64,000 bases of DNA from a virus. The position numbers and the translations under genes were made by a program. The stretch lies in IMG/VR virus record IMGVR_UViG_3300027902_000155, positions 25,553 through 89,552 of that record; one strand, 5' to 3'. Position 1 is the first letter of the stretch. Every line of letters starts with the position of its first letter. A model generated the notes under the pieces. That model was not told the DNA's origin. It did not search any database and worked only from the letters and a program-made list of their open reading frames with translations. This document shows, piece by piece, positions 46,419 through 55,307 of the stretch.

Positions 46419-46426
46419 CATAAATA
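46419..46426 (+). promoter_or_regulatory. T4-type late promoter heading glycosyltransferase operon
   Basis: CATAAATA. Confidence 0.7.
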
Positions 46427-46447
46427 ATTCGTCACTATATACGGGAC

Positions 46448-47629
46448 GTGAGTGAGATGAGCGTCAACTTTACGATGGTTATGATCGCCCGAAACGAGGC
46501 GAAGACCCTCCCGACCCTGTTTGCTTCCCTAAGAGAGTTCATGGACCGAGGCGGCGAGACCGTGCTGGTCGATACCGGTTCTACAGACGGCACGCCCGAG
46601 CTAGCCAGGAAGCTGGGATGCACCGTCGTCGACGAGGTCGGCGAGCGATTCATGATCACGGTCGACGAAGATACCGCTGGAAAGATCAACGAGCGCTTCG
46701 TCGTAGACAGCGAGCCGCTCATAGTCAGGGGCGGAGACCGACTGTTCAATTTCTCGGCGGCGCGCAACCACTCTGCGAGTCTAGCCTCAAATGACATGAT
46801 AGCGACCCTCGACTGCGACGAGGCGTATACTAAGCTAGACATCGACGTTGTCCAGCAGTTCATTCGAGACGGCGTCGAGCAGTTCGAGTATAACTTCGTG
46901 TTCAGTCACGACGAGTTCGGCGCGGAGGTCATAAAATTCGTCCAGTGTAAGTTCTACAACCGTAAGAAGATGAGGTGGGTCAACTACGTCCACGAGATAC
47001 TTGCTGGATCAGCCAACAGGATATTTCTTGGAGAAGACGTGATCAAGCTGGAGCACTGGCAGCAGCATGGTAGCGACCACCGCACGAAGTACCTAGCGGG
47101 ACTGGCGCTTGACTGCTTCATGAGTCCAGACAACGATCGTAACAGTCACTACCTGGCTCGCGAGCTGATGTGGGCGGGTAGGCCGAGGTCCGCGATCAAG
47201 GAGTTCGAGCGTCACATCGCGATGGATCGCTGGCTGCAGGAGAAGGCGCAGTCTCAGATATTCTTGGGCGACTCTTACGGAATGATCGGCAACGAAGAGA
47301 AGCAGATCGAGTCTTACCACAAGGCGTTCCAGATGGACAGTTCGCGTCGGCAGCCTCTTATCTCTTTGGCGCTGCTGTACAAGGCGAAGGGCGACCACCA
47401 GCGCGCAGCTTGCTATGCCGCCGCGTCCCTGGAGATACCATGGTACGGGTTCTATGCGGACTTCAAGAACCACTACGCCGACCTTCCGCACTTCATCCTC
47501 TACACCAGCAAGTGGTTCATGGGAGACGTAGAGGGCAGCAGGCACCACTTCGACAAGGCCCTTGCGTACGCGCCCAACAACGGCCAGTACCTGTACCACA
47601 AGCCGTACTACTACCCCGAGAAGGTCTGA
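46448..47629 (+). CDS. GT2 glycosyltransferase with TPR repeats
   Basis: MIARNEAKTL, VDTGSTDGT, FSAARN, LDCDE, VHE; C-terminal TPR-like helices. Confidence 0.9.
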   Translation: MSEMSVNFTMVMIARNEAKTLPTLFASLREFMDRGGETVLVDTGSTDGTPELARKLGCTVVDEVGERFMITVDEDTAGKINERFVVDSEPLIVRGGDRLFNFSAARNHSASLASNDMIATLDCDEAYTKLDIDVVQQFIRDGVEQFEYNFVFSHDEFGAEVIKFVQCKFYNRKKMRWVNYVHEILAGSANRIFLGEDVIKLEHWQQHGSDHRTKYLAGLALDCFMSPDNDRNSHYLARELMWAGRPRSAIKEFERHIAMDRWLQEKAQSQIFLGDSYGMIGNEEKQIESYHKAFQMDSSRRQPLISLALLYKAKGDHQRAACYAAASLEIPWYGFYADFKNHYADLPHFILYTSKWFMGDVEGSRHHFDKALAYAPNNGQYLYHKPYYYPEKV

Positions 47630-47630
47630 C

Positions 47631-52233: not shown

Positions 52234-52275
52234 CCATGAAGAAGGCAGAGTTTTGCCTAACCTCGGGGTATTCCG

Positions 52276-52602
52276 TTGAGTGGAAAAGTCAATCTTGTCA
52301 TAGAGCAGGGAACCACATTCACCACCATCCTGGACATGAAAGACAGCGACGGGCTGCCGCTGAACGTCGCAGACTACACCGCTGATGCACAGATCCGCAA
52401 GTTCTATACCAGTTCTAACGCGATCCTCTTTAATACTACTCTGAACTCCGACAGTTCCCTGACGCTGACCCTGGATCCCGAAGACACGGTCGACGTCGAG
52501 CCGGGCAGGTACGTCTACGACGTCAAACTGACCCACGGCAGCGGAATCATCCTTCGCATCCTTGAGGGCATCGCCACCATCACACCAGACGTTACGAGGT
52601 AA
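52276..52602 (+). CDS. small virion adaptor protein (BppU N-terminal-like)
   Basis: [33 protein letters not shown]. Confidence 0.75.
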
Positions 52603-52604
52603 CC

Positions 52605-55307
52605 GTGGTCGCTAAATCCCCGATCATCGTAACAGTCAGAACAGAGACTCCCCCTGTCAATACCGTCACCGTTAGAGGAACAGCGGTCGGAGCGACCGGA
52701 TATACCGGCTACACTGGTTCTGCTGGATACGTCGGGTACGACGGCCCTACCGGCGCGACTGGCTTCACGGGCTACACGGGCGCTGGTGCGTTCACCGGCG
52801 CGACCGGGTACACGGGCTACGTCGGCGATATCGGCGCTACCGGCTACACCGGTTACACCGGTGCGGGAGCCTTCACCGGCACTACCGGCTACACCGGCTA
52901 CACCGGCTACACCGGCGAGACAGGCTATACCGGCTACACCGGCGAGACAGGCTATACCGGCTACACTGGCACTACCGGCTACACCGGCTACACCGGCGCT
53001 GGTGCATTCACCGGCGCTACTGGCTACACCGGCACGATCGGTGCTACCGGTGCGACGGGATATACAGGCTACACCGGCTACACCGGAGCTACGGGCTACA
53101 CCGGCACCACGGGCGCTACCGGTTATACAGGCTACACCGGAACTACCGGTGCGACCGGCTATACAGGCTACACGGGTCGTACCGGCTACACCGGATATAC
53201 CGGTGCGGGTGCCTTCACTGGTGCTACGGGCTATACCGGCTTCACTGGTCCTATCGGAGCGACAGGCGCTACAGGCTACACCGGCACTACGGGTGCTACC
53301 GGCTACACGGGCTACACCGGTGCAGGCGCTTTCACGGGCGCTACTGGCTATACCGGAACTTCTGGCGCTACCGGCTACACCGGCTACACTGGTACCGGCG
53401 CCTTTACTGGCGCTACTGGCTACACCGGTTACACTGGTCAGGCAGGTACCTCGCTCAACATCAAGGGCGCAGTAGCTAACTATGCAAGTCTGCCCGGAAG
53501 TCCGGCTTCGGGCGACGCCTATATCACTACAGATACCGGGCACTTGTGGGTCTGGAACGGAGCGTCGTGGACAGACGCTGGACAGATCGCTTCGCCGACT
53601 GGCTACACAGGCTACACCGGCTATAGCGGCTTCACGGGCTACACGGGCGCGGGCGCCTTCACCGGTACTACCGGCTATACCGGAACTACCGGCGCTACGG
53701 GCTACACTGGCTACACCGGCGCCACAGGTGCTACTGGCTACACCGGCTATACCGGTGTTGGCGCCTTCACGGGTGCGACCGGCTATACCGGCTTCACTGG
53801 CTACACGGGCGCAGGCGCGTTTACCGGCGCTACGGGCTATACGGGATACTCTGGTCGCACGGGCTATACCGGCTACACTGGTAATATAGGTCCTACGGGC
53901 GCCACCGGCTACACCGGCTTCACTGGCGCGGGCGCGTTCACCGGCGCGACCGGCTACACCGGCGCTACCGGCTACACCGGTTACACCGGCGCAGGCGCCT
54001 TCACCGGTGCCACCGGCTACACTGGCTACACGGGCGCAACCGGCACTACCGGCTATACCGGCTACACCGGCGCAACCGGTACGACCGGCTACACTGGCTA
54101 TACCGGCGCCGGTGCGTTCACCGGCGCTACAGGCTATACGGGCTTTACTGGCTACACGGGCGCGGGTGCCTTCACCGGCGCAACCGGTTACACAGGGTAT
54201 ACAGGCGCAACCGGCGCTACCGGCTATACCGGTTACACCGGCGCAACCGGAACTACTGGTTACACCGGATACACCGGTGCTGGTGCCTTCACCGGCACTA
54301 CAGGCTACACGGGCTATACCGGAACCACGGGCGCAACTGGCTACACCGGATACACGGGTGTGGGTGCGTTCACCGGCGCAACCGGCTACACCGGATATAC
54401 CGGCGCCGGTGCGTTCACCGGCGCTACAGGCTACACGGGCTATACCGGAACCACGGGCGCAACTGGCTACACCGGATACACCGGCGCGGGTGCGTACACT
54501 GGAGCTACGGGCTATACCGGTTACACCGGCGCTGGTGCTTATACTGGCGCAACAGGCTATACAGGCTATACCGGATACACAGGACGCACGGGCTACACCG
54601 GCTACACCGGCACTGGTACTGCAGGTGCTACTGGCTACACGGGCTACACCGGCGGACTCGGCATGTCGGCCTGGCAGGTCAAGACTGGAACATACACCCT
54701 AGTCAACAACGACCGCATCATCGCTGACACCAGTGGCGGGGCCTTTACACTGACCCTGCCGGCGACGCCATCTGCAGGATACTACGCCGCGTTCCTCGAC
54801 CTAGCATCGACCTGGTCGTCGAACAACGTGACCATCGGTCGCAACGGCTCGAACATCCAGTCGTTGGCGTCAGACCTCGTCTGCGACGTCTCCGGGGCAT
54901 ACTTCCAGCTCGTCTATACTAACTCGACGGTGGGATGGGACATCACTGCGACGGCGGGTCCGATAGGTCCAGCTGGTCCTACCTCTATCTCACAGAACAG
55001 TCAGAGCGGCGACTACACGACCATAGGAAGCGACAGCGGCAAGCACATACTGCACCCGGGTACTGACACCAGCGCGAGGACGTTCACGATCGACAGCAAC
55101 GCCAACGTCGCCTATGCCGTCGGAACGACCATCACGTTCGTAAACCAGTCCGGAGCCGGCACCCTGACCATCGCCATCACGGCCGATACCATGCGACTCG
55201 CTCCGACGGGCGACACCGGCAACCGCACTTTAGTACCCAACAGCATCGCGACGGCGCTAAAGATAGGCACGACTGAGTGGATAATCTCTGGAACTGGGAT
55301 TTCTTAG
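52605..55307 (+). CDS. collagen-like fibre protein with Gly-Tyr-Thr repeats
   Basis: long G-X-T triplet runs ([12 protein letters not shown]) with GAGAFT breaks; internal GDAY...LWVWNG..W domain; C-terminal [13 protein letters not shown] fibre domains. Confidence 0.9.
52689..54653 (+). repeat. 9-bp-period GGCTACACC-type coding repeat
   Basis: degenerate GGN-TAY-ACN triplets, interrupted about 53440-53600. Confidence 0.95.

Follow-up and report, generated by a model that had tools for sequence, protein, structure and literature searches.

Why does a phage carry a block of glycosyltransferase genes just upstream of a collagen-like fibre gene that is filled with threonine? The question was raised by a 64,000-nucleotide stretch of viral DNA, here called the window, which forms the last 64 kb of the 89,552-base IMG/VR record IMGVR_UViG_3300027902_000155 (positions 25,553 to 89,552); the completeness of this record is estimated at 55%. 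A first-pass annotation of the window had proposed that the phage builds a glycan on its own fibres. Our analysis makes it probable that the phage O-glycosylates its own collagen-like virion fibres by means of a system that resembles SgtA and BclA3 of C. difficile. The core of the earlier proposal is strongly supported by co-occurrence of the genes, by likeness in fold and sequence and by an SgtA-like architecture and neighbourhood, all of which is comparative evidence.

The enzyme, adaptor-position and collagen genes named in the first-pass annotation are all present, co-directional and tightly packed, as judged from the open reading frame (ORF) list, Pfam and PHROGs. From 46448 to 61554 every gene lies on the plus strand, and the genes overlap or are separated by short gaps. 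The block opens with a glycosyltransferase that combines a GT2 domain with tetratricopeptide repeats (GT2-TPR, 46448..47629; a 393-aa ORF, 390 aa in the database call). It is followed by a radical SAM/SPASM enzyme of 335 aa (47631..48638; Pfam Radical_SAM and SPASM), by a 781-aa triple fusion of a GT2-TPR paralogue, a Methyltransf_24 domain and a C-terminal GT2 (48619..50964; Pfam and PHROGs), and by two GT32-like glycosyltransferases, a (50955..51617) and b (51617..52201), which match Gly_transf_sug/DXD (PF04488) with 29.0 and 41.0 bits, respectively, at a cut-off of 23. A small gene for a 108-aa fibre-associated protein (52276..52602; phrog_1084, 5e-24; phrog_3304, 4.6e-17) then leads to the gene of a 900-aa collagen-like tail fibre protein (52605..55307; Pfam Collagen PF01391, E 4.7e-58). 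The small gene had been taken for an adaptor. Its position before the collagen gene holds, and its PHROG label is instead 'L-shaped tail fiber protein assembly'; a similar small gene also lies 5' of the collagen gene in one of the related loci described below (L011).

What kind of enzyme is GT2-TPR? The N-terminal half is a GT2 domain (PF00535, E 1.5e-12). The C-terminal half matches TPR_2, TPR_8 and TPR_16, each under its own Pfam cut-off, and profile matches of this half to consensus TPR proteins reach an E-value of 4e-42. In a 30-sequence alignment of the family (A1), D119, D121 and E122 of the DxD motif and the nucleotide-binding residues D39 and D44 are invariant. The AlphaFold2 model (pLDDT 93) has a GT-A domain and then a helical-repeat domain at residues 209-385. 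The top full-length fold matches are ThuS and SunS (Foldseek E ~1e-14, TM-score ~0.6, ~400 columns), with a sequence identity of 13-17%; lower matches include TPR proteins, WrtF, TarS, RmlT and the TPR part of GmaR. In sequence, the best non-designed match in the PDB is the glycosyltransferase domain of GmaR (E 9.6e-15). As modelled, GT2-TPR folds in the manner typical of glycosyltransferases that act on proteins and peptides, and we propose that it is the initiating protein O-glycosyltransferase. The maximal hydropathy over 19 residues is 0.68-1.41 among the five enzymes of the block, which indicates that none of them has a transmembrane segment. The family is large: at least 513 homologues were found at E <= 1e-10 among 8000 candidates scored. 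The best 120 are at least 51% identical to the window's enzyme, the closest at 74%, and most reach ~575 aa through fusion to a second GT2 or to a methyltransferase. A tblastn search of 50,697 phage records found relatives in only 8, all at <=27% identity and none T4-like by name; in one of them, PaBG, no collagen is annotated within 8 kb of the match.

The evidence that carries the argument comes from the neighbourhoods of the family's members. Two locus searches yielded 81 viral loci that encode the GT2-TPR family; the window's own record (L001-L008) was excluded from all locus counts. A collagen was called Thr-rich when an ORF within the locus DNA contained at least 10 triplets with at least 50% Thr at the Y position of G-X-Y. 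By this definition 69 of the 81 loci contain a Thr-rich collagen, mostly of the Gly-Tyr-Thr (GYT) type, with Tyr at X in roughly 10-70% of the triplets. The gap between enzyme and collagen has a median of 2.0 kb and is at most 3 kb in 59 loci, and the two genes are on the same strand in 68 of 69. Of the records with GT2-TPR, 18 are at least 90% complete, and every one of these has a Thr-rich collagen. Ten of the 12 loci lacking a qualifying collagen were re-examined over the whole record, and a GYT or Gly-Pro-Thr (GPT) collagen was found elsewhere in the record for L013, L016, L018, L061, L087 and L036.

The association extends beyond this set. Ten full-length relatives were found in prokaryote assemblies, on contigs of metagenome-assembled genomes (MAGs) labelled with scattered phyla, and 7 of them have a Thr-rich collagen nearby; for matches to the N-terminal GT2 domain only, the count is 0 of 14. 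The isolate Actinomycetia phage DSL-LC01 encodes two (GPT)n collagens and, two genes (~3 kb) further downstream, a relative of 26% identity. In the same phage (L360), a gene annotated as tryptophan halogenase (6445-8016) is located between the (GPT)n collagens and the GT2-TPR relative, and a UDP-galactopyranose mutase and a further glycosyltransferase are encoded ~6 kb away.

The relation was also examined in the reverse direction, from fibre to enzyme. The degenerate DNA pattern (GYT)4, which stands for four such triplets, gave more than 120 viral stretches, and 48 records, about half of those derived from the pattern, were searched for the enzyme at E <= 1e-5, with L193-L208 left out. GT2-TPR was found in 22 of the 48 and, among records at least 50% complete, in 13 of 15. 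For a control we turned to a collagen pattern that is blind to composition (eleven GGs, one every nine bases). It hit 118 loci, and 105 records were searched. Thr at Y was >=0.5 in 21 of these loci, 0.25-0.5 in 24 and <0.25 in 70, three had no qualifying collagen, and GYT-type collagens were essentially absent. Only 9 of the 105 control records matched GT2-TPR (7 of 43 among those at least 50% complete). Within the control itself, the enzyme was matched in 6 of 18 Thr-rich records versus 3 of 87 others (p = 7e-4). For the two comparisons between the sets (13/15 versus 7/43 and 22/48 versus 9/105), the Fisher p values are 1.9e-6 and 3.7e-7; these tests treat records as independent, and kinship among loci inflates the significance. 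Co-occurrence across phages was one of the checks suggested in the first-pass annotation, and it came out positive in both directions. The (GYT)4 pattern also occurs in giant-virus bins (GVMAG; L090, L094, L099, L108, L113, L146, L151-L153, L155 and L157). Four further records (L216, L245, L283 and L292, all <=30% complete) encode Gly-Tyr-Ser collagens, with Ser at Y and Tyr at X, and none of the four has a GT2-TPR match.

How many independent events do these counts represent? ORFs overlapping the enzyme-collagen module were removed and the loci were joined by single linkage whenever they had at least two flanking ORFs in common. No flanking ORF is common to 2700 of the 3321 locus pairs, and the loci fall into 28 backbone groups, of which 24 include a Thr-rich collagen. 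The window itself has one flanking ORF in common with one locus, and its own flanking proteins, used as queries, found nothing in the other loci. The GT2-TPR loci range from 33 to 63% in GC, and the complete genomes range from ~40 kb to 317 kb. A T4-type Gp23 capsid was found in 2 of 49 records (L014 and L015, both complete genomes of ~176 kb with GYT collagens). The lead enzyme accompanies Thr-rich fibres in many unrelated phages, and therefore the phage's own fibres are most likely the structures that are sugar-coated.

Another virion protein could be the acceptor, such as the capsid, the tail tube or the repetitive 2081-aa tail protein encoded next to the collagen (55309..61554, plus strand; phrog_5939 tail protein, E 1e-158; no relative in the 81 loci). 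There is a precedent in the mycobacteriophages, in which phage enzymes are reported to glycosylate the C-termini of capsid and tail-tube proteins (Freeman et al. 2023, via PMC12619734). One locus, L010, also points this way: its only collagen is not Thr-rich, and a protein without collagen repeats that has ten TG[YF][TS] motifs is encoded near the enzyme. The protein in question (L010:13050-14591, 513 aa) carries these motifs in repeated 'SDKTGY[TS]' units, and a GT2-TPR-GT2 gene lies 3.3 kb upstream of its own; it might be a substrate other than collagen. Across the backbones, though, the Thr-rich collagen is the only common element besides glycosyltransferases. No other flanking family is present in more than 32 of the 81 loci, and the families next in frequency probably belong to the 31-locus backbone group. 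We regard it as unlikely that other virion proteins are what the GT2-TPR enzymes serve, and such glycosylation may occur in addition to that of the fibres.

The collagens themselves have an unusual composition. The 900-aa protein contains 185 G-X-Y triplets in 21 runs of 4-22 triplets, and the Pfam Collagen match spans six stretches. Thr occupies Y in 151 of the 185 triplets, in agreement with the earlier description of Thr in nearly every third position; GYT (85) and Gly-Ala-Thr (GAT, 40) are the most frequent triplets. Only 3 Pro and ~6 charged residues occur in the collagen part, which is interrupted by 18 breaks of the form G[AVT]GA[FY]T. A globular insert lies at about residues 284-332 and a C-terminal domain starts at about residue 690; residues 608-779 match phrog_366, phrog_4302 and phrog_9648, of which 366 and 9648 are annotated as tail fibre or tail protein. 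A second Gly-Tyr-Thr collagen of 354 aa is encoded at 62237..63301 on the plus strand, with 29 triplets (20 of them GYT; fraction of Thr at Y 0.83) followed by a C-terminal Gly_rich_2 domain (PF21722). It is probably a further substrate. Another Gly_rich_2 protein, with a score just under the cut-off, is encoded at 43669-45252.

Composition also distinguishes these fibres from other viral collagens. In Thr-rich viral collagens, with the enzyme nearby or not, the median share of charged residues at X and Y is 3.4%, compared with 20.4% in other viral collagens; the Thr-rich proteins are thus without the salt-bridge clamps by which most collagens are proposed to be stabilised. Enzyme-linked collagens have a median of 20% aromatic residues at X and Y versus 0% in other Thr-rich viral collagens. 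This enrichment suggests that Tyr is part of a recognised motif or interacts with the sugar. In Bacillus anthracis BclA and in Riftia cuticle collagen, which are cellular systems with Gly-X-Thr repeats, glycans on Thr stabilise the triple helix. In the phage set, about half of the triplets have Tyr at X, a trait specific to it. Collagen-like proteins rich in Thr are anomalously common in viruses. A 2025 study on the folding of collagen reports that (Gly-Pro-Thr)10 is a random coil unless Thr is galactosylated, and that TGP triplets are anomalously frequent in viruses, and it leaves open whether and when Thr is glycosylated there (PMC11923368).

Which known system does the locus resemble most? 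SgtA of C. difficile has 358 aa, with GT-A at residues 1-260 and four TPRs at 262-358; in peptides derived from the collagen repeats of BclA3 it attaches beta-O-GlcNAc (N-acetylglucosamine) to Thr, and bclA3 is the gene immediately downstream of its own (PMC7157674). GT2-TPR is like SgtA, as described there, in being a soluble protein of ~360-390 aa with GT-A/GT2 followed by TPRs and in having its gene close upstream of a Thr-rich collagen. Unlike SgtA and BclA3, the present system is phage-encoded, and its presumed substrate is a virion fibre instead of a spore coat protein; the repeats are Gly-Tyr-Thr and Gly-Ala-Thr and nearly free of Pro; and there are two initiator paralogues together with an added GT2, two GT32-like enzymes, a methyltransferase and a radical SAM enzyme. 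GmaR of Listeria monocytogenes, which transfers GlcNAc to flagellin and has a central TPR domain (PMC9638930), likewise has a glycosyltransferase domain followed by TPRs and acts on a filament protein. It differs in its 637 aa, in its linker and antirepressor domains and in its substrate, flagellin and not collagen. SunS (SPbeta prophage) and ThuS have a GT-A domain with a helical-repeat domain and act on peptide. Those enzymes S-glycosylate Cys of a small bacteriocin precursor encoded nearby; no small Cys-containing glycocin precursor with export genes was found beside GT2-TPR in the ORF list from 42 to 60 kb. With the mycobacteriophages the phage would have in common that glycosyltransferases of phage origin act on its own structural proteins. 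The targets reported there are capsid and tail-tube C-termini and not collagen repeats (Freeman et al. 2023, via PMC12619734). By analogy, we would place the system with SgtA and BclA3, as a variant carried by phages. Particular to the window are the T4-like backbone, the two initiator paralogues, the triple fusion, the two GT32-like genes, the embedded radical SAM gene and the nearly Pro-free GYT/GAT fibre. Full-text searches found no literature on phage-encoded glycosylation of collagen-like fibres, and one directed at virion glycosylation led to nothing beyond the mycobacteriophage work and papers citing it, which is consistent with the earlier remark that such a system had not been described for T4-like phages.

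Several points weigh against fibre glycosylation. The case consists throughout of association and resemblance: from these we infer the collagen as substrate, the order and roles of the enzymes, the sugar and the stabilising function. The likeness to SgtA is one of architecture and neighbourhood, and the full-length superposition on SunS and ThuS has a root-mean-square deviation of ~13 Å, which means that the domains are oriented differently. In the window, GT2-TPR does not adjoin the collagen gene; it lies upstream at a distance of 5 kb and four genes. Five of the 81 loci, all fragments or truncated, have no clear Thr-rich collagen: besides L010, these are L062, with a short GYT/GPT collagen only, L012, with a truncated Thr-rich collagen at the locus end, and L072 and L074, which have none and whose records are 55% and 14% complete. 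Two (GYT)4 records, G016 and G136, lack the enzyme in spite of being fairly complete, and a third fairly complete one, G001, the one giant-virus bin searched, gives only a weak GT2-TPR match (2.3e-8). Many loci are akin, the largest backbone group comprising 31, and the counts overstate the number of independent events. Finally, glycosyltransferases in the tail-fibre region of pelagimyophages, which are T4-like, have been read as modifiers of the host O-chain (PMC7029224).

That last reading could apply here too: the enzyme block would remodel a host surface glycan (lipopolysaccharide O-chain, capsule or exopolysaccharide), for example against superinfection, and would be located near the fibre genes because the fibre region is a hypervariable hotspot. 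Polysaccharide pathways often contain GT2, GT32-like and Methyltransf_24 domains, and a predicted membrane protein of 170 aa (maximum KD19 2.28) is encoded directly upstream, at 45903-46415, just 5' of the enzyme block. Such a role leaves unexplained the two-way link to Thr-rich GYT/GPT collagens, which holds over a GC range of 33-70% and 28 backbones. It also fits poorly with the TPR half, with the peptide-glycosyltransferase fold and with the upstream membrane ORF being found in 0 of 81 loci. Among the genes scanned between 40263 and 63756 (some small ORFs lie outside the scan), no Pfam match to a flippase, a polymerase or a lipid-carrier priming transferase was found. A Gtr-type O-antigen set would consist of a membrane-anchored GtrB, a flippase and an integral-membrane transferase; the enzymes here have no transmembrane segment and no flippase was matched. 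Remodelling of the host surface is, in our judgement, quite improbable as the function of the block. The membrane protein is one of two proteins encoded at 45403-46415; the other has 167 aa and a GYSGG (GxSxG-like) motif. Both are without a Pfam match, and neither ORF has relatives in the 81 loci.

The phage setting bears on a further alternative. A gp6-like baseplate gene lies at 26636-28414 (phrog_219, E 5.9e-142), and gp7-like and gp8-like genes are also found 5' of the locus (phrog_17744 and phrog_438). Among the 2363 phage records that the gp6-like protein matches, the nearest named one is Caulobacter phage Cr30 (33.8% identity). At the nucleotide level, megablast found no match to the region in the 50,697 phage records. 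The T4-like (Straboviridae-type) setting assumed in the first-pass annotation is confirmed by sequence likeness of these baseplate wedge genes; the capsid gene is outside the window. The heptamer ATAAATA occurs 19 times in the window, compared with 1.4 expected (~13-fold), a number reached in 0 of 100 shuffles. The copies are mostly directly 5' of structural genes, often in the form GCATAAATA. One (46420..46426, plus strand) is 22 nt 5' of the GT2-TPR start, a second (52227..52233, plus strand) is 5' of the fibre genes and a third (62204) is 5' of the second collagen gene; further sites are at 26625 (before gp6), 30686, 42435, 45254 and 61551. Judged by its placement, ATAAATA is likely the late-promoter core of this phage. 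The strict T4 late promoter TATAAATA has three copies in the window, none of them near the locus, and scans for sigma-70 promoters and terminators found nothing beyond the shuffled expectation. As a motif argument, the arrangement fits late co-expression of enzymes and fibres. The description of the locus as a late operon accordingly stands on the ATAAATA motif and not on the strict T4 promoter. Elsewhere upstream, at 40263-42433, a second radical SAM protein (PF04055, E 5.6e-10, with Fer4_12) and an overlapping 340-aa ORF come after a 2086-aa VrlC-like gene.

Could the enzymes instead glycosylate the phage DNA to evade restriction? DNA glycosylation is a common default annotation for phage glycosyltransferases (PMC10202952 and PMC12801897), and the methyltransferase domain matches phrog_2675, 'DNA methyltransferase' (1.3e-15). 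We consider this explanation very remote: the genes are located in the structural module behind a late-type motif, no base-hypermodification genes were found among the flanking genes scanned, the TPR-bearing, SunS/GmaR-like fold suggests a protein acceptor, and the association with collagen would be left unexplained.

If GT2-TPR initiates, what do the other enzymes of the block contribute? The N-terminal GT2 of the fusion (E 2.7e-14) forms, together with a TPR-like region, a second GT2-TPR that is 37% identical to the first. It is followed by Methyltransf_24 (E 1e-13) and by the C-terminal GT2, which scores 27.8 bits at a cut-off of 23.3; the sole PDB sequence match of this last domain, TarP at E 0.11, was not used. 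By tblastn, relatives of the C-terminal GT2 are present in 69 of the 81 GT2-TPR loci and those of the methyltransferase in 20. The GT32-like enzymes a and b are paralogues (31% identical) that both contain a DAD motif, and their relatives occur in 18 of 81. The first-pass annotation had assigned stepwise roles: initiation by GT2-TPR, extension by GT32, modification by the radical SAM enzyme and methyl capping. Thr glycosylation by GT2-TPR is backed by co-occurrence and fold; its place as initiator and the roles of the GT32-like enzymes and the methyltransferase, whose relatives are far from universal in the loci, can be put forward tentatively.

The radical SAM/SPASM enzyme is a different case. 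Cys13, Cys17 and Cys20 of the CxxxCxxC motif and the SPASM cysteines are invariant in alignment A2. The family is one of ~330-aa proteins, largely viral in Atlas, with 164 homologues at E <= 1e-8, some of which are in bacterial and archaeal MAGs. Relatives were found in 0 of the 81 GT2-TPR loci, and a single-sequence locus search found no viral relative. A profile search found 9 viral loci with relatives, none of which has GT2-TPR or collagen. In two of them (L329 and L334) the neighbours are GT2, Methyltransf_24, a hexapeptide transferase, PIG-L and GT9; in L326 and L333 they are methyltransferases only; in L327/L328 and L330-L332 they are unrelated genes. Only 2 of 6 distinct viral contexts are glycan gene clusters. 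The AlphaFold2 model (pLDDT 91) matches the peptide-acting enzymes anSME, CteB, SkfB and SuiB and, with similar E-values, the sugar- and nucleotide-acting BtrN, DesII, BlsE and viperin. These matches are mixed, and therefore the fold does not separate sugar- from peptide-acting enzymes. Scores of NCBIfam maturase models are far under their cut-offs, and no precursor was identified. Modification of the glycan, as assigned earlier, is one candidate role among others. The enzyme was dropped as a conserved part of the system since the nine loci with relatives have neither GT2-TPR nor collagen and differ in their neighbours; on gene content, it is a lineage-specific addition outside the conserved system.

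How, then, might the system work? Late in infection, the soluble cytoplasmic enzymes of 46448-52201 would act on the 52605-55307 fibre and probably on that of 62237-63301 as well. The TPR half would hold the repetitive Gly-Tyr-Thr chain, and the GT-A half would move the first sugar from a host nucleotide sugar onto Thr hydroxyls. The co-travelling second GT2 could extend the glycan, the two GT32-like enzymes could extend it further in this phage, and the fused methyltransferase could O-methylate it. Glycans on ~150 Thr per chain would supply stability to the triple helix and solubility, and would also give the fibre a glycan coat. We assign the glycans this stabilising and solubilising part because the fibre is nearly without Pro and charged residues and would lack the hydroxyproline or salt bridges that serve this purpose in other collagens.

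A bolder version gives Tyr a part as well. The Gly-Tyr-Thr fibre would fold only through phage-encoded chemistry, with Thr glycosylated and the neighbouring Tyr functionally required, and it would represent a new class of triple helix, 'glyco-aromatic', hydroxyproline-free, charge-free and widespread. Tyr could be part of a G-Y-T sequon and stack on the sugar by CH-pi contacts, or it could be a second site of modification, through O-glycosylation by TcdA/B-like GT32 enzymes or through radical cross-linking by the SPASM enzyme. Cross-linking of the three-residue cyclophane type by the radical SAM enzyme was set aside since the residue at Tyr+2 is Gly. We hold the 'glyco-aromatic' proposal to be rather doubtful and offer it as a speculation; if true, such helices would occur in phages of 40 kb up to >300 kb as well as in giant-virus bins.

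The window's locus and its ~80 relatives name a conserved, soluble candidate enzyme family for the Thr glycosylation of viral collagens, and (GYT)n is a simple substrate with which the question is directly testable in vitro. If the phage does glycosylate its fibres, glycan-coated fibres would be widespread and overlooked in phage particles. This would bear on host recognition, on virion stability, on antibody recognition of therapeutic phages and on the annotation of phage glycosyltransferases as 'LPS-modifying' (lipopolysaccharide-modifying) or 'DNA-modifying'. Recombinant collagen materials free of hydroxyproline would become accessible as well, with enzymatic glycosylation as the source of their stability.

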